The position numbers and the translations under genes are program-made. The notes below the pieces were generated by a model, which was not told the origin of the DNA, did no database searches, and saw only the letters and a program-made list of their open reading frames with translations. From an uncultured Spirochaetota bacterium (GTDB lineage Bacteria; Spirochaetota; Brevinematia; Brevinematales; JAOACQ01): a stretch of DNA of 64,000 nucleotides. This document shows positions 34,096 to 46,203 of the stretch, one piece after another. The stretch covers positions 192,001 through 256,000 of the forward strand of contig CAWIGG010000004.1 of assembly GCA_963835575.1 (NCBI GenBank). The letters run 5' to 3'. Each line of letters starts with the position of its first letter. The first letter of the stretch is position 1.

Positions 34096-36048
34096 ATGAA
34101 AATCTTAAAGCGTATTTTATGGATTTCTCTCGCTGTTATCGGTGCTTTTGCCTTTGCCGTGCTGACAAAACTCGTGAACATCTCAGAGCACGTCAACGCT
34201 CTCTGGATGATCGTCGCGGCCGCATGCATTTATATCATTGCCTACCGTTTTTATTCGGCCTTTATCTCCGCAAAAGTCCTTGTTTTGAACGATAAGAACA
34301 AAACGCCCGCGGTCATTTTTAACGACGGCCACGACTACGACCCAACCAACAAATGGGTGCTTTTCGGGCACCATTTTGCCGCCATCGCCGGGGCCGGCCC
34401 TCTGATCGGGCCCGTTCTGGCGGCGCAGTTCGGCTACCTGCCCGGCATGCTCTGGATTCTGATCGGCTCCGTGGCGGCCGGCGCCGTGCATGATTTCATC
34501 ATTCTCGTTTTCTCCATCCGGAGGAACGGAAAGTCCCTGCCTGAAATAGCCAAGGCGGAAGTCGGGCCCATCGCCGGGTTCACGGCGATGCTGGCCACGT
34601 TCTTTATCGTCATTGTGGCGCTGGCCGGGCTCGGGATCGTCGTTGTCAAGGCCCTCGCGAACTCGCCATGGTCGACATTCATCATCGCCATGACCATCCC
34701 GATCGCCATTTTCATGGGATTTTATCTCCGGTTCATCCGCAAGGGAAAGGTCGGCGAAGTCTCCATCATCGGCGTGGTGCTTCTACTTTTAGCGGTGATT
34801 TTCGGAAAAAACATACAGGGTTCGTCCCTTGCGCAGTTCTTCACGTTCAATGAACAGCAGATCACATTCCTCTTGATGGGCTACGGTTTGATCGCCAGCG
34901 CGCTTCCCGTTTGGATGCTCCTCGCTCCCCGGGACTATCTTTCAACCTACATGAAAATCGGCACCATCGCGCTTCTGGCCGTCGGCGTCTTTTTCATGGC
35001 GCCCAACATCGTTTTCCCGCCGGTCACGCAGTTTGCCGCCGGAGGCGGACCCATCATTCCGGGAGCGCTTTTTCCCTACCTGTTCATCACCATCGCATGC
35101 GGAGCGATATCGGGCTTTCATTCCCTGATATCCAGCGGTACGACGCCGAAGATGATCAAAAAGGAAAGCGAGGCCCGCGCGATCGGATACGGCGCCATGC
35201 TTGTCGAGGGCTTCGTGTCCATCATGGCGTTGATCGCCGCGACGACCCTCTCCACGGGCGACTACTTTCTGATCAACAGCCCCCTGACGCAGGACGCCCT
35301 GGCAAAACTCGGCTTTATTCCCGACAAGCTCCAGTGGTTCGAACAGCAGATCGGCATCTCGCTTGCCCACAGGACGGGCGGCGCCGTGACGCTCGCCATC
35401 GGCATGGCCAATATACTTTCCTCCATACCGGGAATGAAGGCGCTTGTCGCCTACTGGTACAACTTCATTTTAATGTTCGAGGCGCTCTTTATCCTGACGA
35501 CCATCGACGCGGGAACGCGCGTGGCCCGTTTTATCGTCCAGGAATCGGCGGGCTATTTTTATAAACCCCTCAAGAATTACACATGGATGCCCGGCCTTAT
35601 CGTCACGAGCGTTTTCGTGGTCCTCTGCTGGGGCTATCTTATCCTGACCGGCAGCATCGCCACCATCTGGCCGATGTTCGGCATTTCGAACCAGCTCCTG
35701 GCCGGCATCGCGCTGATCATCGGTTCGACCATCCTGATCAAGATGAAAAAGCTCCGCTTCGTATGGATCACCATCGTACCGGCGGCCTTTGTCCTTGCCG
35801 TGACGCTGACGGCGTCTGTCCTCGAAGTGCTGAAGTATATCAAGCTTTTAGCCGCTCCGGGGCTGACGTTCATCCAGCAGCTGACATACCGGCTGAATAT
35901 GATCCTCATCTGCGTCATGGCGGTCCTTGCCATAGTGATCGTAGTTGACTGCGTTTCGAAATGGTCCGGCTTTGCCAAAAAACCCTATAAGGAACCGGTT
36001 TCCGGCGGGCAGAAGAGCGAGATACCGGTGATGGAAGTCCCCGATTAG
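34096..36048 (+). CDS. cstA: Carbon starvation protein A (peptide/pyruvate transporter)
   Basis: FGHHFAAIAGAGPL.GP, LAPRDYLS, IACGAISGFH, WPMFG.SNQLL; TTGACT-17-TAGAAT at 34000-34028. Confidence 0.95.
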   Translation: MKILKRILWISLAVIGAFAFAVLTKLVNISEHVNALWMIVAAACIYIIAYRFYSAFISAKVLVLNDKNKTPAVIFNDGHDYDPTNKWVLFGHHFAAIAGAGPLIGPVLAAQFGYLPGMLWILIGSVAAGAVHDFIILVFSIRRNGKSLPEIAKAEVGPIAGFTAMLATFFIVIVALAGLGIVVVKALANSPWSTFIIAMTIPIAIFMGFYLRFIRKGKVGEVSIIGVVLLLLAVIFGKNIQGSSLAQFFTFNEQQITFLLMGYGLIASALPVWMLLAPRDYLSTYMKIGTIALLAVGVFFMAPNIVFPPVTQFAAGGGPIIPGALFPYLFITIACGAISGFHSLISSGTTPKMIKKESEARAIGYGAMLVEGFVSIMALIAATTLSTGDYFLINSPLTQDALAKLGFIPDKLQWFEQQIGISLAHRTGGAVTLAIGMANILSSIPGMKALVAYWYNFILMFEALFILTTIDAGTRVARFIVQESAGYFYKPLKNYTWMPGLIVTSVFVVLCWGYLILTGSIATIWPMFGISNQLLAGIALIIGSTILIKMKKLRFVWITIVPAAFVLAVTLTASVLEVLKYIKLLAAPGLTFIQQLTYRLNMILICVMAVLAIVIVVDCVSKWSGFAKKPYKEPVSGGQKSEIPVMEVPD

Positions 36049-36412
36049 GGTATTAATAACATTCCCTGGATTGTTAAGTCGCTTACGAGGGTTTTAACAC
36101 AGAGGACACGGAGGGGATCGGAGAGCACTGAGAGCTGTCGGGTTAATACTGTCCATGTAATTGTAAAAGGTTCCCTGGATTGTTCCGATTCCTTTACATT
36201 AAACACGAAGACACGAAGAATCACGAAGAGTGGAAAATCCGGACGAAACATGCCGGGGTTCCGGGTGAAACATGCCACCCAATCCGTGTGAAACATGCCG
36301 GGTAATCCGGATGAAATGTTACCACCTACCATAAGAAAAAGCGAATCAAACACGAAGAATTCCTCCGAGAATGTTAAGCTAATCCTTCTTGAAAAAATAA
36401 GAAGGAGTTGGT

Positions 36413-37969
36413 ATGCCGAACAGGAGGAAGCCTATGAAGAAAATCCGGGAAGTGATCCGGATGATCAAAGAAAACGGCCTGAGCTGCCGTGTGACATCAA
36501 AGGCCCTGGATATTTCCAGGCCAACCGTGCAAAGATATATATCCAGGTTTGAAAAAAGCGGCCTAACCATCGCGGAAATTTATGAAATGAGCGATTCTGC
36601 TTTAATTGAAATTTTCGAATCGATGGCAGAAGGTGACAGTCAGGAAGAAACCGAAAAGGATAATCTGTACAATGAATTCCCCGAATACAGTAAGGAACTA
36701 CTGCGTACAGGCGTCAATCTGAGATTGCTTTGGGAAGAATACCTGAGAAAATATCCAGGAGGCTATCGCTATTCTCAATTCTGCTATCACTACGGCATCT
36801 GGAAAGGTTCTCTTGAAATATCCATGCACCAGGAATACAAGGCCGGAGACAAGCTTTTTGTTGATTTTACCGGCGCGAAATTTCCGATTGTAGACCGTTC
36901 CACAGGAGAAGTTATAGAGAAAGAGGTATTCGTAGCCATTCTTGGAGCAAGCCAGTATACATATGTGGAAGCGACGGATAGCCAGAAGAAAGAAGACTTA
37001 ATCAGGGCTATCGAGAACGCGTTGTATTACTTCGGAGGATCACCAAGAGCCATAATACCCGATTGTTTAAAAAGCGCTGTAACGTTGGGCAATAAATATG
37101 AACCTGCAATTAATTCTGAATTTCAGAATTTTTGCAGACATTATTCTATGTGTCCCCTCCCTGCAAGACCATATAAACCGCGAGATAAAGCACACGTTGA
37201 AAACGCCGTAAAAATCACCTACAGCTGGATATTTGCCGTTCTCAGGAATAGAGTTTTTTATACTCTGGGAGAATTGAATATTGCTATACGGGAACAATTG
37301 GGAATCTATAATTCAAAGAAGATGCAGAAGCTCAAAGTCAGCAGGCGGGAATTTTTCGAGGAAACAGAACGGAAAGAGTTAAAACCGCTTCCGAAGGAAA
37401 GATACAGTTTTAAAAGCTTCTCAAAAGCTAAGATCCAATTCAACTATCATGTCTGTCTCAAAGAAGATTCTCATTACTACAGCGTTCCATATCGATATAG
37501 AGGCAAAATGGCAGATATTGTTACTTCCGATCGGACAGTGGAAATATTTGTTGATAATATCCGCATTGCAGCCTATCCACGGGACCGTAGAAAGCAAGTT
37601 TATACAACCACACATGAACATATGCCGCCCCATCACAGGTGGGTCGGAGACTGGAATCCGGAGAAGTTAACACATTGGGGTAAGTCGCTTGGTCCGGATG
37701 TTGAAGAAATGATAAAGAGAGTCCTGCAAAGCAGGGATTATCCAGAACAGGCATATAAGGTCTGTCTGGGCATCTTAAGCCTGGCCAAAAAACTCGGAAA
37801 AGAAAGGCTCGATAAAGCCTGTAAACGGGCGCTTGATTTTCAGTATTATTCATATCAGGGAATAAAGCGGATTCTGGAGAAAGGCCTGGATAATTTTGAG
37901 GAAGAATCGGTACTGTTTCCGGCCGTTAAGATGCATGAAAATATCCGCGGAAGAGAATATTTTGAATAG
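36413..37969 (+). CDS. istA: IS21 transposase
   Basis: HTH, FVDFTG, PDCLKSAV, KPRDKAHVE, YYSVPY. Confidence 0.93.
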   Translation: MPNRRKPMKKIREVIRMIKENGLSCRVTSKALDISRPTVQRYISRFEKSGLTIAEIYEMSDSALIEIFESMAEGDSQEETEKDNLYNEFPEYSKELLRTGVNLRLLWEEYLRKYPGGYRYSQFCYHYGIWKGSLEISMHQEYKAGDKLFVDFTGAKFPIVDRSTGEVIEKEVFVAILGASQYTYVEATDSQKKEDLIRAIENALYYFGGSPRAIIPDCLKSAVTLGNKYEPAINSEFQNFCRHYSMCPLPARPYKPRDKAHVENAVKITYSWIFAVLRNRVFYTLGELNIAIREQLGIYNSKKMQKLKVSRREFFEETERKELKPLPKERYSFKSFSKAKIQFNYHVCLKEDSHYYSVPYRYRGKMADIVTSDRTVEIFVDNIRIAAYPRDRRKQVYTTTHEHMPPHHRWVGDWNPEKLTHWGKSLGPDVEEMIKRVLQSRDYPEQAYKVCLGILSLAKKLGKERLDKACKRALDFQYYSYQGIKRILEKGLDNFEEESVLFPAVKMHENIRGREYFE

Positions 37970-37981
37970 GAGGAACTGAAT

Positions 37982-38725
37982 ATGACCAATGAAGCAACTA
38001 TTGAAAAAATGCAGAAGATGAAACTGCATGGGATGTCCAGGGCGTTTGAGGATATCATTGCCGGTAAAACGCCTGACGGCCTGACTGCCGATGAAACAAT
38101 TGCGCATCTTGTGGATTCGGAATGGGACGAAAGGTATAATCGGAAACTGTCATCTTTAATCAAAAGAGGGCGTTTCAGATATCAGGCTGGTCTGGAGAAT
38201 CTTTCTTACCGTGCGGATAGAGAACTGGATAAAAATCTGATATTGAGGCTTTCGAATTGTGATTGGATACGAAAGAAAGAAAATATGATTATTACAGGCG
38301 CTACCGGCAGCGGGAAAAGCTATCTTGCATCAGCTTTCGGTAATCAGGCTTGCCGGCAGGGCTACAGGACCCTTTATTTCAACTGTTTGAAGATTTTTAC
38401 CCGGTTAAAATTCGCAAAAGCGGAAGGTAGTTACTCAAAAGAAATGAATTTTATCCAGAAGCAGGATTTATTGATACTGGATGATTTTGGTCTTGAAATT
38501 CTTGATACACCCTCAAGATTGTCTCTTCTGGAAATGCTTGAGGACCGGCATGGTAAAAACTCTACTTTGATAACTTCTCAGCTGCCGGTAAAAGATTGGT
38601 TTGAAAAAATCGGTGATCCTACGATAGCTGACGCAATCTGTGACAGGATAAATCATTCTGCTATTAAAATCGAATTGAAGGGGGTTGATTCTATGCGTAA
38701 AATTTATGCTAAAGATTCTGGATGA
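37982..38725 (+). CDS. istB: IS21 helper AAA+ ATPase
   Basis: GATGSGKS, LLILDDFG, TSQLP..W, ADAICDR. Confidence 0.95.
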   Translation: MTNEATIEKMQKMKLHGMSRAFEDIIAGKTPDGLTADETIAHLVDSEWDERYNRKLSSLIKRGRFRYQAGLENLSYRADRELDKNLILRLSNCDWIRKKENMIITGATGSGKSYLASAFGNQACRQGYRTLYFNCLKIFTRLKFAKAEGSYSKEMNFIQKQDLLILDDFGLEILDTPSRLSLLEMLEDRHGKNSTLITSQLPVKDWFEKIGDPTIADAICDRINHSAIKIELKGVDSMRKIYAKDSG

Positions 38726-38967
38726 AACATGCCACCTGCCTTAAAATGTTTTGGGAATTTTAGTGTTTTGAAAAGTGGTAACATTTCGCCCGGAACCCCG
38801 GCACATTTCACCGGAATACGCAAAGAGCACAAAGGGTGTTTAGCATTTCTTTTTTGTTCAATTATAGATATTCATAAGCTTTTCTTTATTATTATATCTG
38901 ATTGTTCACGCGGATCGGCGCGGATGGGACGGATTTGCGCGGATATTGTTTAATGTAATTTCAATTT

Positions 38968-40008
38968 TTATGAATCACCTTTTATTTTATTTGTTTTTAA
39001 ATAATGTTCGAAATATTCTAAAAGCTTTTCATGCCTATTTTGGATTTGGTACCTTTCACCTGGAGCATTATTAAGATGTGATTTAAATATGTATAGTTCT
39101 TTGTTTTTTCTATCAAAACCTGCTTTATCTTCTTCTTTTATTCTTTTCCACAATTTAATAACAAACTCTACAAATTTAGGCATTTTCTTATCAATTACAT
39201 TGTCCGCATTCATTATAAATTCTACAAATAAATATATTGATAATATCAAAGATCGATTTTTTATTTCAGCAATCTTCTCTCCGAAATATTTTTCTAATTC
39301 ATTTAAAACTTTTAAAATAGATCTACATTTTTTTTTAAAGAATATTAGATCATCACCTTCCGGTTTTTGATATTGTTCAAAAAAGATTTTTAGATCTTCA
39401 TATCTTGTTCCAGAAAATTGATCAATTTTTTCTTTGTAAAATGAATTTATCACTATTTGAGCACATAGAGTTTGCTTTGCATATCTATGATTTGGAATTT
39501 TTATCAATTGAATAAATTTATGAGAATTCATTTCGTTAAAAACAAAATCTTTCATGTACCCAACTTTTGCATGTAATTTTTCCCCGGTTATTAATAATAA
39601 ACCTAACTGTAATCTTAAAAAAAGTTCTCTTAAATAGTCTTTTGTTGCCCCTTTTATTTCTACAATCTGTATTTCATAATTTAAAAATTGAAGCTCAATA
39701 TCATTATTTAAATCTCTAAATTTATAACTTTTACTATTTAATTTACAATCATATTCATTATCGATAAATTCCCAAATAGCCCATAAACGTTGTTGACCAT
39801 CTATAACTTCATATTCTTCTTTTCCAATTTTTGAAAAATAAAGTTTTGGAATATCAATGTCATTGAAAATTGAATCAATAAGCAGTTGTTTATCTCTTAT
39901 CTTCCATAATTTTGGTTCTCTTTGAAAGTCAGGACATGAAATAGAATCTCTTTTTTGATAAATTTTTTCTATTGACCAAGGTATAACAACTCTTTCTACA
40001 TTCTTCAT
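38968..40008 (-). CDS. DUF262 (ParB-like, GmrSD N-terminal) protein
   Basis: PDFQR...W, LIDSI, IP, IDGQQRL motifs; no C-terminal HNH visible. Confidence 0.85.
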   Translation of the reverse strand: MKNVERVVIPWSIEKIYQKRDSISCPDFQREPKLWKIRDKQLLIDSIFNDIDIPKLYFSKIGKEEYEVIDGQQRLWAIWEFIDNEYDCKLNSKSYKFRDLNNDIELQFLNYEIQIVEIKGATKDYLRELFLRLQLGLLLITGEKLHAKVGYMKDFVFNEMNSHKFIQLIKIPNHRYAKQTLCAQIVINSFYKEKIDQFSGTRYEDLKIFFEQYQKPEGDDLIFFKKKCRSILKVLNELEKYFGEKIAEIKNRSLILSIYLFVEFIMNADNVIDKKMPKFVEFVIKLWKRIKEEDKAGFDRKNKELYIFKSHLNNAPGERYQIQNRHEKLLEYFEHYLKTNKIKGDS

Positions 40009-41084
40009 TTTTCAATTACTTCCTTTAAATAACTTCCTTTTTTTAGATTAAATTCACCTTTCTTTAAATGATTCATACTTTTTATTTTAAGCCAATAACT
40101 AAAAATATTACTTAAAGCTGATTTTTCAATTTCCCCCTCGTCACTGAGATCTTTGTATAATGAAAAGTCGCCATCTGTATTATTCCCTAATGGAACGATA
40201 TTATTTAGAAATGAATATTCACTATTTATCCTTTTTTCTGCATTTTTATCAATAATTAATTCTATTGTAAAATTCTTTCCATTACAACAATAATTTTTAT
40301 ATTGAGCATTAAACAACAAAGAAATTATATTCCAGTCATTTTGACTTAATGAACAGCCAATTATTCTTAAAATATCACAATTTTTTACTAGTAATTCATA
40401 AGCAATACCCATTAGCTTATTGTATGGATATTCTTTAGATTCTTTTAAAATTGTCGGTGGAATCCATTGTATATTAGGATCGTATTTACTATCAGTATTC
40501 AATGGTACAACTTTTATAGGTATATCATGAAGCCAATCAAAAGAACCATGCAATTTTATTATTGGGGGAATACTAGTTTTATATTTATAATAATCAGATT
40601 GAAAATTAAATCCTAAGTTTAAACCACCATATACCTTGTGTGATGCAACTTGAAATAAATTATCATGATTTAGGCTAATAATACCTTCCAGCTTTTCAAC
40701 ATTTTTTAAAAAATAGTCATTATGATGCATTTCAAGTAAAGCTACGGTTAGTTGAGGATTATTTAAGATATTTGCTTTAAACAAACTATTTAAAATTTCA
40801 TTAAAATAGAATTCCCTTAATTTTTCCGCCACTTCAATATTTTTTTTTAAACCAGTGGCAGTAAATAAACTTATTAATTTTTCAATATCTATATCTTGAC
40901 CTTTTTTAATAATCAAAGCCCATTCTCTACTAGATTTGGCTCTTTTTATTATACGTGAACTGATTCCCTCTCCATGGATTTTACTATCCTTCATAAGCAA
41001 ATTAATTTTTTCACCACCTTTATTATCTGCTTCAGCTTGTGTTGCTCCAGCACCAATTAAATAAACAATCTTTTTAGCTGCCAT
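40005..41084 (-). CDS. SIR2-like (SIR2_2) protein
   Basis: YLIGAGA, SLNHDNL, KLHGS.DW, IPPT..K, IIGCSL...D. Confidence 0.75.
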   Translation of the reverse strand: MAAKKIVYLIGAGATQAEADNKGGEKINLLMKDSKIHGEGISSRIIKRAKSSREWALIIKKGQDIDIEKLISLFTATGLKKNIEVAEKLREFYFNEILNSLFKANILNNPQLTVALLEMHHNDYFLKNVEKLEGIISLNHDNLFQVASHKVYGGLNLGFNFQSDYYKYKTSIPPIIKLHGSFDWLHDIPIKVVPLNTDSKYDPNIQWIPPTILKESKEYPYNKLMGIAYELLVKNCDILRIIGCSLSQNDWNIISLLFNAQYKNYCCNGKNFTIELIIDKNAEKRINSEYSFLNNIVPLGNNTDGDFSLYKDLSDEGEIEKSALSNIFSYWLKIKSMNHLKKGEFNLKKGSYLKEVIEK

Positions 41085-41091
41085 AACTTTC

Positions 41092-42318
41092 CTATTTTTT
41101 CCACACGATTAGACTTTCTCTGGTAGGTTCTCTTTTATATTCCGCCATTTGCTGGGAACTGTTCCCTCGATATCTCAATACATGGATGCTCTCTGAAGTT
41201 AATCCGACCTGCTCTCCTATTTCACTGAGAATAATATCAACCGGAATCCCTATTCCGGCATAGCGGACATTGCTTACAACAAGGCCGATATATCCATTAT
41301 CCTTTAAAACCGAGCCCATTTCTTTAAGACACAGATACATATCTTCAAAATAACCGTTTAAAGTGGAAATTATCTGCGGATTATTCAATTCTTTTTTTCC
41401 CAGTTCACTAATGATATTTTTTAAAACATCGGGGGCTTCATATTTTTCCGCTTCAAATCTCTTTCTTGCTTCGACATGCGATCTGAGCGTATTATATCGT
41501 AATTTTTTAATGGATTCATTATCATTTAAAAAACCCACCAAAAGCTCTAATTGATATATTCTTGTATAATCGTGCCTATTTGGATATGGAGGAGAAGTCA
41601 AAACCGCATCGAATTTCTTTTCTTTTATTTCTTCGGGATATTGCCGCGAATCGCCAAGAAATGCGGTTGATGTCGATTCTGAGAATTGAATTCTATTAAA
41701 ATCTTTAATATAACTGTTTATTGTTGAGTTAAATAAATTTTTTACTATCTCGGAAGGAACCCTTCTTTGTTCGGTTATCCTGAGAAATCCCCCCGATTTT
41801 TTCGCTTTGCTTACTTTATTCAGTATGCTCAGCAAAGACAATAAAAATAGGTCTTTTTCCTGTTCATCAATTTTATTGATAGAATCCTTTAGCGAAAATA
41901 TATATTTCAATGTATCATTAGAAAATGACTTTTGGAGCAGAGGCACATCCGGTATTTCAACCCGGGGATTTGTTTTATGAGAAATCTCTTCGGCTAACCG
42001 ATTTATTTTTGACTCTTCATATTTTGTAGTTAATGCCTTTGATATGAAAACAGAGAAAGGAGAAATATCCAATCCAGTGGAATTGTAGCCGTCTATTTTT
42101 GATTGAATTAAAGTTGTGCCCCCTCCGCAGAAGGGGTCAAGGATTGAATCACCTTTTGAAAGGTTGAACATCGAAAATATTTCTTTTATTAATTTGCTTC
42201 CGAATCTGTGTTTAAATCCATACCAGTTGAATGGCGGATTATCTCTGTCGGAAATTGGTGAAACATAATTGCCCCAATCCAGTCTTTCTAAAATTTCCAC
42301 TTTATTTTCCTTATGCAA
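41092..42318 (-). CDS. Amino-DNA methyltransferase (probably N4-cytosine)
   Basis: DPFCGGGTT (motif I) precedes TSPPY (motif IV); RESLIVW C-terminus. Confidence 0.9.
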   Translation of the reverse strand: MHKENKVEILERLDWGNYVSPISDRDNPPFNWYGFKHRFGSKLIKEIFSMFNLSKGDSILDPFCGGGTTLIQSKIDGYNSTGLDISPFSVFISKALTTKYEESKINRLAEEISHKTNPRVEIPDVPLLQKSFSNDTLKYIFSLKDSINKIDEQEKDLFLLSLLSILNKVSKAKKSGGFLRITEQRRVPSEIVKNLFNSTINSYIKDFNRIQFSESTSTAFLGDSRQYPEEIKEKKFDAVLTSPPYPNRHDYTRIYQLELLVGFLNDNESIKKLRYNTLRSHVEARKRFEAEKYEAPDVLKNIISELGKKELNNPQIISTLNGYFEDMYLCLKEMGSVLKDNGYIGLVVSNVRYAGIGIPVDIILSEIGEQVGLTSESIHVLRYRGNSSQQMAEYKREPTRESLIVWKK

Positions 42319-42414
42319 TTATATTAGCCAATGTCAGCAAACAATTTTAAACACAAATTTAATTTAAAATTCGTCAATGAGTTACAAATTTAATTCTCAC
42401 AAATTATTACGGAT

Positions 42415-42443
42415 ATTATAATTATGGATGAACAGATTGTCAA
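42415..42443 (-). promoter_or_regulatory. Consensus sigma70 promoter of MTase-SIR2-DUF262 operon
   Basis: TTGACA(42443-42438)-17-TATAAT(42420-42415). Confidence 0.75.
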
Positions 42444-42636: not shown

Positions 42637-43220
42637 TCACTCGAAATCATGGACATGCGGCGGCAGATGATCATAGAAATGTTCTGCAGATTCATGTACA
42701 AGCCTTTTTAACCGGTTTAGATGATCGAAATGGACCGTTACATGCGAAAGACAGGGAACATGGTGCATCATCTTATGCCGGGTGTCCAGAGCGATACTGT
42801 GGGCTTTTTCCACATTCAGCTTCGGGTTTAACGCGATGGTCAATTCAGCGTAAAGCTGGTGCCCCGGCCGCCGTACGCGAAGGGATGAAAAACCTTTCAC
42901 TTTCCGGACATGGCTTAAGGTATGTAAAATTTCATCAATGATATCAGGGTCAAAGCAGTCAATCAGACTTGTAAAACCGACTTTCCGGAATTCCTGAAAA
43001 TTTATAAAATCTTGAGTATAATAATGGGCCTGATCATCGACTCCGCCTATGGGAAGCCGGGATTAACCCCGGCGGTTCCGGCAAACACAAATTCCTCCAG
43101 GCCAGTTAATCCGTTGATCCGGGCATGACAGCCGCCGGCGTTAAGAGCGGCGCTGCCGGCTGCCCCGCCCGTTTTTTATTTTATAAACCCGGCAGGCTCA
43201 CGGCCAGTGAAACCATTGAT
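42637..43220 (-). pseudogene. Decayed 3' copy of the CDF transporter 45175-46203
   Basis: KGFSSLRVRRPGHQLYAELTIALNPKLNVEKAH...DHLPPHVHDFE matches the intact gene; frameshifted similarity continues to ~43220. Confidence 0.85.
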
Positions 43221-45174: not shown

Positions 45175-46203
45175 TTACTCAAAATCATGGATATGCGCCG
45201 GAAGATGATCATGAGTATGTCTTTCCGGCTTTTTCTTAAGACTTCCGGCCGGAATAAAAGGATCGACATGGACCGTCGCATGAGAAAGATAGGGAACATG
45301 GTGCATCAACTCATGCTGGGTTTCCAGAGCTATATTGTGGGCTTTTTCCACATTCAGTTTTGGATTTAATGCAATGGTCAGTTCGGCAAAAAGCTGGTGT
45401 CCCAGCCACCGCACGCGTATGGATGAAAAACCTTTTACTTCCGGGACATGGCTTAAGGCATGCATGATTTCGTCTATAACGTCAGGGTCAACACCGTCAA
45501 TCAGCCTTGTAAAAACGGACTTTCCGGAATCCCAGACGATTTTTAAGATCATGAAGGTAATGAGAAGGCCGATGACCGGGTCCGCCATTGGAAAACCGAG
45601 GCCCACCCCTATGGCCCCGGCAAAAACCGCCAGGCTCGTTAATCCGTCAATCCGGGCATGATGGCCGTCGGCGACAAGCGCGGCGCTGCCGATCTTCCTG
45701 CCCGTTTTTATCCTCATCAGCGCGGCCGCCTCATTCCCGGTAAAGCCGATGATGGAAGCGGTCATAACCGCCCAGAGATTTTTAACGGCCGCCGGCTTAA
45801 TGATTCTTTCAATAGACTCATAGCCCGCTATGACCGCGCTCGCGAGTATGATCAATACTATAAAAACTCCCGCCAGGTCTTCCATACGCCCATAGCCGTA
45901 TGTAAAGCGCTTTGTCGGCTTCTTTTTTGAAAGCGCAAAGGCGATCCAGAGGGCTATTCCGGTCAAAGCATCGCCGGCATTATGGATCGTGTCCGCGAAA
46001 AGCGCGATACTTCCGGAATAGAATACAATAAAAATTTGAAATAACGCCGTGGAGAGTAAAATCACAAAAGACAATTTGACAGCCCGGATGCCCTGCTCCG
46101 TATTTATTATGGAAGGATCAATAAAGCCATGGATGTGTTCATGTTTGCCGCTTTTTTTTACAGGATTATCATTATTCATAATTTTCTGACAGCCAATTTT
46201 CAT
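45175..46203 (-). CDS. Cation diffusion facilitator transporter
   Basis: SIAL.AD.IHN.GD, TYGYGR.EDLAG, ADGHHAR.D; His-rich termini. Confidence 0.92.
   Translation of the reverse strand: MKIGCQKIMNNDNPVKKSGKHEHIHGFIDPSIINTEQGIRAVKLSFVILLSTALFQIFIVFYSGSIALFADTIHNAGDALTGIALWIAFALSKKKPTKRFTYGYGRMEDLAGVFIVLIILASAVIAGYESIERIIKPAAVKNLWAVMTASIIGFTGNEAAALMRIKTGRKIGSAALVADGHHARIDGLTSLAVFAGAIGVGLGFPMADPVIGLLITFMILKIVWDSGKSVFTRLIDGVDPDVIDEIMHALSHVPEVKGFSSIRVRWLGHQLFAELTIALNPKLNVEKAHNIALETQHELMHHVPYLSHATVHVDPFIPAGSLKKKPERHTHDHLPAHIHDFE

Follow-up and report, generated by a model that had tools for sequence, protein, structure and literature searches.

The window analyzed here, a stretch of 64,000 nucleotides (nt) from contig CAWIGG010000004.1 of an uncultured Spirochaetota bacterium (assembly GCA_963835575.1), holds a cassette of three genes that encode a DNA methyltransferase (MTase), a SIR2-like protein and a DUF262 protein. 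This cassette is real, widespread and apparently undescribed, and it is most likely a DUF262 defence coupled to DNA modification, with a sirtuin as its output. A role in defence is highly probable, given the domains, their linkage and their patchy spread, and depletion of NAD+ is the most likely form of that role, judging from the modelled folds and the motifs. The direct observations are the linkage of the genes, the folds of their products, the exchange of the MTase between loci, and the restriction of the partner MTases to enzymes with an SPPY motif.

The three open reading frames (ORFs) lie on the minus strand in the order MTase, SIR2, DUF262:

41092..42318, minus strand: MTase gene, 408 amino acids (aa) from a TTG; the protein of the record has 402 aa, with a likely GTG start at 42300 behind AAGGA
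40005..41084, minus strand: SIR2-like gene, 359 aa
38968..40008, minus strand: DUF262 gene, 346 aa
42415..42443, minus strand: predicted sigma-70 promoter TTGACA-17-TATAAT, consensus match 12/12

The gap of 7 nt between the MTase and SIR2 genes, the ATGA overlap of SIR2 with DUF262 and the common orientation agree with the preliminary description, made from the letters of the window, which had proposed a defence operon without a restriction nuclease; indeed, no nuclease is encoded within the operon according to ORFs, Pfam and PADLOC. The promoter, which had also been called perfect, is the sole 12/12 match among 26 promoter-like sites between positions 37500 and 44000 of the window; their total is close to the 27.2 given by chance, and only the perfect site is notable. 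The wording "markedly AT-rich" suits the SIR2 and DUF262 genes (26.5 and 24.5% G+C, versus 41.8% for the genome) and is less apt for the MTase gene (35.3%).

Linkage of the genes and folds of their products

Searches for homologues returned 491 matches for SIR2, 1316 for DUF262 and 3896 for the MTase, and a profile search gave 360 clusters at 50% identity. The loci compared below came from pattern-based scans and comprise 22 genome loci and 80 of 87 metagenome loci; these 102 loci form 88 clusters at 90% nucleotide identity, with carriers that, by record titles and tree labels, belong to Nitrospirota, Acidobacteriota, Pseudomonadota, Gemmatimonadales, Myxococcota and two archaea. The DUF262 gene is directly downstream of SIR2 in 81 of the 83 clusters whose downstream flank is 300 nt or longer, the misses being L021, of poor sequence, and L022, where DUF262 is found 1.6 kb further on. 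An MTase occurs within ∼3.6 kb of SIR2 in 63 of the 66 clusters whose upstream flank reaches 1 kb, a count that leaves out 22 clusters with short upstream flanks; in 47 clusters the three genes abut as a tight trio, and the MTase gene is first in most loci. The trio is therefore a conserved cassette far beyond this genome, a point that the preliminary description had left to a synteny search.

Regarding the partners, the window MTase belongs to clade A, a group of its own at about 52-66% identity; a second group, clade B, is 18-19% identical both to clade A and to the MTases that accompany BsoBI-family nucleases (BsoBI type), and it differs in the putative target-recognition region. Clade B alone was the partner in 38 of the 66 clusters, and clade A alone in 11; in 5, clade B came together with an additional DUF262-HEPN module, the partners were other or mixed in 9, and 3 had none. 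These counts were made with six MTase queries that the loci themselves supplied and with nuclease queries for the BsoBI and XhoI families only, so other nucleases farther away may be missed; within this scope, an MTase without a recognised nuclease was kept at 54 of the 66 clusters.

The reverse test gave a similar picture: a clade-A profile had five matches in 301 genomes of one phylum, and the four strong ones were all in trios, two already in the set and two new with divergent SIR2s; the fifth, weaker match was not in a trio. A distant SIR2 gene from the same 301 genomes precedes a DUF262 gene and follows a split (two-ORF) SPPY MTase with an XcyI-family nuclease. The clade-B search of 401 genomes and the distant-SIR2 search of 301 genomes found the seed genome only in each case. 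In the viral contigs searched there was no clade-A MTase, core SIR2 relatives were found neither in these contigs nor in the plasmids searched, and the distant SIR2 profile had one weak match of 47 residues in viral contigs. Closer to the host, the SIR2 family is absent from all 60 relatives searched, and the DUF262 profile, run on 300 further genomes from this phylum, gave one distant match only, which fits horizontal acquisition. Broken genes were considered as an indicator of toxicity and not counted, since many of the breaks resemble artefacts of assembly (the split L044, for instance, has a whole twin in L042).

As for the middle protein, its AlphaFold2 model (predicted local distance difference test, pLDDT, 90.1) confirmed a sirtuin Rossmann fold rather than a nuclease fold: the closest structure is PsSIR2 (8w9l), the SIR2 of SIR2-HerA, with Z 20.8 and a root-mean-square deviation (rmsd) of 3.8 over 291 aligned residues. 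SIR2-HerA and PD-T7-2 are the nearest SIR2 structures (Z 16.9-20.8), and Foldseek gave E 4e-10 to 8sub. Sequence comparison was less direct: the Pfam SIR2_2 match (E 0.002) is below cut-off, and a sequence-profile search of the PDB found no sirtuin with the close alignment, but did so with the distant one. The window protein has the motifs GAGAT, NHD (N139) and KLHGS (H179), and in a profile of distant relatives (A6) the Asn and His motifs line up with N112 and H152 of ThsA, and also with those of PsSIR2. N139 is invariant in 120 of 120 homologues; the core family has NHD with an invariant His, and the distant relatives have NYD together with an invariant His of their own. The matches in the ESM Atlas were unnamed SIR2_2 clusters, apart from a single AbiH cluster. 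From fold and motifs, the protein is predicted to be a NAD+-hydrolyzing (NADase) effector; thus NAD+ depletion, as first proposed, is still the most likely output, with a reservation about the histidine of HGS that is taken up below.

The third protein matches Pfam GmrSD_N/DUF262 above cut-off (8e-13) and PADLOC NsnA (4e-23). Its model (pLDDT 90.6; predicted template modelling score 0.65) is all helical beyond residue 123, and the best folds are BrxU (Z 10.0, rmsd 7.8, 292 aligned), SspE (Z 8.6) and DndI (Z 6.4); Foldseek returned no DUF262 match under E 0.001. There is no Pfam match to DUF1524/HNH in the window protein and no such conserved neighbour among the loci, and the claim that it lacks an HNH part holds. 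Residues D70, G71, Q73 and R74 (DGQQR) are invariant in 57 sequences, and the motifs DGQQR, RR[YF]AK, RTRYEDL and APGE[KR]YQI stay constant regardless of the MTase partner. The model thus describes an HNH-less DUF262 NTPase of ParB/Srx fold with helical middle and C-terminal parts, predicted by analogy to be the sensor.

The MTase matches Pfam PF01555 and PADLOC MTase_II PDLC03224 (1e-76), a family that also contains the MTases partnering BsoBI-family nucleases; among NCBIfam families, none was above cut-off for the MTase and none matched SIR2 or DUF262. Its motifs follow the alpha order, as defined in the part of PMC2890505 that was available, with motif I (DPFCGGG) near residue 60 and SPPY at residues 243-246. 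It is 30% identical to the BsoBI-partner MTase of locus L002, and part of the putative target-recognition region is common to clade A and these enzymes. Because of SPPY and this kinship, it is predicted to be of the N4-cytosine type and to write N4-methylcytosine (m4C). SPPY generally indicates m4C, with exceptions. In the passages at hand, it forms the active site of an m4C enzyme that has been characterised (PMC10406627), and BcnI is given as m4C in a title cited by PMC2890505.

Among the long alpha-type MTase copies of the loci, motif IV is SPPY in 64 of 67, and SSPY or SPAY in the rest; clade-B MTases with SSPY or SPAY occur in L019, L095 and L084 beside full-length SIR2 and DUF262 genes, and these three were given no weight in the argument. 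A census of MTase motifs by regular expression, independent of the MTase queries, counted 58 SPP versus 1 DPP in the 102 loci. For the host genome the figures were 2 SPP and 10 NPP, and in the flanks of generic viral DUF262 genes there were 4 SPP, 4 DPP and 1 C5. By motif, nearly every partner MTase is of the SPPY type; these enzymes represent only about three independent protein families, and the signal is real but modest.

Exchange of the methyltransferase partner

The SIR2 and DUF262 genes have stayed together while the MTase beside them was exchanged. In the 49 loci with a full alpha-type MTase, the pairwise identities of SIR2 and DUF262 had a Spearman correlation of 0.82, versus 0.60 for DUF262 and the MTase, with the caveat that kin are not independent. 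One case is the pair L094, with a BsoBI-family restriction-modification (RM) pair, and L096, with a clade-A MTase: their SIR2s are 87% identical, their DUF262s 83% and their MTases 30%, and they are sisters in both the SIR2 tree (FastTree) and the DUF262 tree (a quick tree) of 56 loci. L022 has a replacement scar: after an inserted BsoBI-family pair, the C-terminal end of a clade-A MTase (111 aa) is still present. More broadly, the median identities between clade-A and clade-B loci are 44% for SIR2, 49% for DUF262 and 19% for the MTase, and the exchanged MTase lineages are only 17-30% identical.

The partners cover MTases of alpha and beta order and restriction endonucleases (REases) of four Pfam families. 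With core-family SIR2s, a whole RM pair takes the MTase position in L002/L030, L022 and L094 (BsoBI family) and in L037 (XhoI family), and L081 has an XhoI-family REase before SIR2; with distant SIR2s, the pairs are of the XcyI family (L226) and of the MvaI/BcnI family with an archaeal MTase (L020). The beta-order MTases have either an XhoI-family or an unclassified neighbour; those of L071 and L076 adjoin other unclassified ORFs, not an XhoI-family gene. The absence of a nuclease thus holds for the operon of the window, and has to be qualified for a minority of loci that carry a whole RM pair. In L081 (379-1978), SIR2 is separated from an alpha-type MTase fragment by a PDC-S64-like gene and the XhoI-family nuclease gene.

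The MTase has been exchanged, the SIR2 and DUF262 motifs have remained fixed and the partners are nearly all of the SPPY type; for these reasons the conserved requirement looks like the m4C mark itself. Since the sensor motifs are unchanged across the MTase swaps, a reading of the mark is favoured over the reading of a site as in classical RM systems.

Candidate mechanisms

The model preferred here, tentatively and with a chance that falls just short of even, is that the DUF262 protein reads self m4C on DNA and gates the SIR2 NADase. The MTase would place m4C on host DNA, as SPPY and its BsoBI-partner kin suggest; the DUF262 protein would bind DNA and read m4C with at most a short sequence context, in keeping with its fold and the swap pattern, and the mark would drive its NTPase cycle and its release, like phosphorothioate for SspE and DndI. 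When unmarked DNA accumulates, through phage replication or a blocked MTase, or when marked host DNA is destroyed, DUF262 would remain in its other state and switch on the co-translated SIR2, by analogy with HerA, which gates the structurally closest SIR2. Finally, SIR2 would hydrolyze NAD+ and the infected cell would stall, a step suggested by fold and motifs.

A positive reading of m4C is favoured because SspE and DndI, which are linked to host modification genes, read the self mark; according to the available passages of PMC9646914 and PMC11662687, this mark stimulates NTP hydrolysis and their release from self DNA, and DndI is harmful without it (PMC11662687). The earlier proposal that the MTase marks self and that DUF262 senses unmodified DNA is supported as a defence reading, with the correction that the cognate MTase is exchangeable rather than fixed; overall, the observation behind the preliminary description is confirmed and its interpretation partly supported. 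If the preferred model is right, a class of orphan N4-cytosine methyltransferases would gain a function.

Several points weigh against this model. Some loci have no MTase at hand: in L034 the contig breaks off after an intact SIR2 gene and the start of DUF262, and the 5 kb upstream contain no MTase; none occurs within 3.6 kb in L064, L065 and L071, of which the first two have short flanks and the third a beta-type MTase 5.5 kb away. The SPPY counts are not independent, as clades A and B, the BsoBI type and the MTase of L060 are related alpha-type enzymes. The MTase swaps are occasional: the MTase clade changes 8 times on the SIR2 tree, versus 20.9 when shuffled, and broadly follows that tree. 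The REases of the core subfamily are of the BsoBI and XhoI families only, whose recognition sites share CTCGAG, so a single fixed site is possible, and the tests of site depletion yielded no target. In the SIR2 family, 9 of 120 homologues have Tyr at the position of H179, and 6 of 56 loci (L024, L029, L031, L041, L094, L096) have Tyr or Phe there, also in intact-looking clade-A and BsoBI-type operons; as a speculation, the invariant H140 may replace H179. No precedent was found for a DUF262 protein that reads a methylated self base, as SspE and DndI read backbone sulphur, and SPPY is an imperfect predictor, a likely m4C enzyme with DPPY being mentioned in the passages at hand of PMC2890505.

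Among the alternatives, one follows the Metis systems and supposes that phage nucleases release N4-methyl-deoxycytidine monophosphate (m4dCMP), or a phosphorylated form, from MTase-labelled host DNA; this nucleotide would bind the DUF262 nucleotide pocket or SIR2 and bring about NAD+ depletion, with the MTase needed for activation and not for protection. It would be the simplest account of partners of any sequence that are m4C-only, and it would accommodate the flexible position of the MTase gene, downstream in L004 and L016 and divergent in L080, as well as the SIR2 of L034 without a nearby MTase. Moreover, it raises no establishment problem in naive hosts, which matches the patchy spread (0 of 60 relatives), and the Metis preprint, in the passages available, predicts versions with their own methylase and with methyl-cytosine sensing. 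It is nevertheless judged unlikely: the MisA, MisB and MisC domains and the clean-up phosphatase are absent among the conserved neighbour clusters, the helical part and the invariant basic motifs of DUF262 resemble the DNA-binding ParBDB of NsnA, and the characterised DUF262 proteins read DNA polymers according to the available part of PMC10952713.

Also improbable, if to be taken seriously, is a fixed-site scheme closer to RM, which takes up the main model of the preliminary description and in which a single unmethylated site (possibly CTCGAG, or one within CYCGRG) is bound by DUF262, m4C blocks this binding, unmethylated phage sites trigger SIR2 and every partner MTase covers the site. The RM pairs in the MTase position are of the BsoBI, XhoI, XcyI and MvaI/BcnI families, whose sites are nested or overlapping; this scheme would also explain the target-recognition segment shared by clade A and the BsoBI-partner MTases and the leading place of the MTase gene, and the toxicity of DndI without its mark, reported in PMC11662687 (in the part available), would suit it. 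It has difficulty with the divergent clade B, which serves the same sensor motifs, and with the beta-type partners of L071 and L076 beside their unclassified ORFs; furthermore, CTCGAG and CYCGRG are not depleted in the SIR2 and DUF262 genes (observed/expected 0.91 and 0.97), a weak test. CCWGG was rejected as a target: it is at 0.69 of expectation in these genes, but at 0.86 in the flanking genes, and the genes are related.

In a further alternative, SIR2 and DUF262 form a self-sufficient pair, similar to Dazbog or type IV systems, which would detect cytosines modified by phage or act as the guard of an RM system, with the MTase as a mere passenger or remnant. Its precedents, each from passages of the sources, are Dazbog, with a DUF262 protein and triggered by a phage cytosine methylase, BrxU, which reads modified cytosines (PMC10952713), and PD-T4-2, a DUF262 and HEPN defence for which no methylase is mentioned there; the few loci without a nearby MTase agree with it. 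The retention of a nuclease-free MTase at most clusters, the near-constancy of SPPY, the confinement of strong clade-A matches to trios and the tie of clade B to DUF262 in viral loci (see below) make it very unlikely, and the sensing of foreign-modified DNA, entertained in the preliminary description, does not account for the first of these points. Lastly, it is extremely improbable that the sirtuin, in at least part of the family, serves as a scaffold or transfers ADP-ribose to a target instead of being a bulk NADase, with the sensing unchanged: the operons with Tyr or Phe at H179 and the divide between NHD and NYD speak for it, but the window protein retains N139 and H179, N139 is invariant and the closest folds are defence NADases.

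Surroundings, sister operons and known systems

The cassette is flanked by two features outside the system:

36413..38725, plus strand: IS21 istA-istB (Pfam rve, IstB_IS21)
42637..42900, minus strand: orphan 3' copy of a cation-efflux gene (ZT_dimer match), with the full gene at 45175-46203

The IS21 element spans 36230-38823 of the window, with short-repeat arrays at either end, and its eight copies in the genome, on five contigs, are 99.96-100% identical, which points to a recent expansion within the host. It does stand beside the operon, as first reported; being one of eight near-identical copies, it is incidental, was rejected as the carrier of the cassette, and says little on the movement of the operon. 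The partial duplicate of the efflux gene (42637-43176 versus 45175-46203; 76% nucleotide identity over 544 nt) is just upstream of the operon promoter, and is possibly a scar at the upstream edge of the cassette. Genomes of the same genus are too distant for an empty-site comparison (cstA is 53-57% identical, and the efflux gene is present in one of four); the cstA gene of the window (34096-36048) has 56% G+C, versus 42% for the genome.

The host has a separate BsoBI-family pair of SPPY MTase and REase on contig C2 (∼414225-416584, minus strand), predicted to be a second source of m4C in trans. Seven large NPPY MTase ORFs (940-1210 aa) and three NPPF ORFs of 234 aa, equal in length and motifs, are spread over contigs C2, C4 and C5, and by these motifs the host is rich in RM genes.

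When clade-B MTases were sought without reference to SIR2, they were tied to DUF262 in 14 of 18 viral loci: 13 have a different DUF262 gene with a MAE_28990-type HEPN gene (three pairs are near-duplicates), and the others are one locus with DUF262 and an uncharacterised gene, three that end at the contig edge and one solitary MTase. Such MTase-DUF262-HEPN operons are common in viral contigs (L109-L126), and a plasmid record (L106) has the same annotated order. In L124 (2046-5064), a protein of 216 aa that matches nothing in Pfam or PADLOC comes after the clade-B MTase and DUF262, and is possibly a third effector. The pattern in these sequences is that of an MTase, a DUF262 protein and an exchangeable, putatively toxic effector, sometimes with two modules per MTase. 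An MTase-ParB-HEPN arrangement is listed in a survey of HEPN proteins (PMC3710099, in the part available), and no functional study of the MTase-linked DUF262-HEPN form was found in the literature searched; the present model would give these operons, recorded in 2013, a testable mechanism. It is possible, if doubtful, that an unrecognised m4C-dependent surveillance family exists, made of an SPPY MTase, DUF262 and either SIR2 or HEPN, and that the cassette represents its NADase branch. On this reading, m4C would be written as a private mark of an intact genome rather than to protect sites against a nuclease; it would be read independently of sequence, on DNA or as released m4dCMP, and any m4C MTase, ordinary RM ones included, could arm the system.

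Other variants were seen in passing. In L071 (3656-7570), directly upstream of SIR2-DUF262, there is a group of three genes that ends in a superfamily-1 helicase-like gene, the other two having no Pfam match; L064 (1-1107) contains the last gene of this group. In L216 (3957-8080), a more distant relative of the clade-A MTases occurs with a HerA/mad8-like ATPase gene and not with SIR2-DUF262.

Regarding novelty, PADLOC 2.0 (2023) has no named system for the trio, in line with the preliminary description, and no account of the trio was found in the literature searched; the supplements of large screens were outside this search, and a listing there is possible. In the passages available, publications that mention DUF262 and SIR2 do so in separate contexts, and the papers on Menshen, GmrSD phylogenomics, embedded systems, ParA and PD-T4-2 do not describe the trio.

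As for type II RM systems of the BsoBI family, they have an MTase of the same broad family, PDLC03224, as the window, whose operon lacks the cognate REase. The MAE_28990 operons and PD-T4-2 have a HEPN RNase in place of SIR2, and their DUF262 is of another subfamily (26-33 bits to the profile); the HEPN of the MTase-linked operons has no PADLOC match at E 0.001, and no HEPN gene follows DUF262 in the window. SIR2-HerA (Nezha) and PD-T7-2 share with the cassette a stand-alone SIR2 followed by an NTPase gene; SIR2-HerA differs in its partner, a P-loop HerA ATPase rather than the ParB-fold DUF262 found here, the identity is 16%, the cassette adds an MTase, and no HerA cluster is among the conserved neighbours of its SIR2s. 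Menshen and Dazbog also combine an HNH-less DUF262 sensor with a separate effector, and NsnA of Menshen is the top PADLOC match; however, the ABC ATPase NsnB and NsnC were not matched in the cassette, which has SIR2 and a near-constant MTase, and solitary methylases occur near some Menshen operons according to the available passages of PMC12065111.

The closest parallels in logic are SspABCD-SspE and IscS-DndBCDE-DndI, in which, in the passages available, a DUF262 NTPase linked to host DNA-modification genes reads the self mark. There the mark is phosphorothioate and the DUF262 protein is fused to an HNH nickase, whereas the cassette has a base MTase, a separate sirtuin and an HNH-less DUF262; phosphorothioation genes are not linked to it, and its conserved neighbour is an amino-MTase. 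If the preferred model is correct, the reading of self marks by DUF262 would extend from phosphorothioate to base methylation.

Finally, Metis (types I and II, and a predicted type III) is, in the available passages, likewise a methylation-dependent abortive defence with NAD+ depletion. Its sensor is PUA-like and its signal N6-methyl-deoxyadenosine monophosphate (m6dAMP); it further has a HAD phosphatase and either a calcineurin-like NAD+ diphosphatase or a membrane protein, and shares no domain with the cassette, whose three proteins have no match to PF00149 or PF13419. If borne out, the cassette would be a methylation-based system of self and non-self with NAD+ depletion, rather than DNA cutting, as its output, and a concrete candidate for the systems with their own methylase and methyl-cytosine sensing that the authors of Metis predicted.

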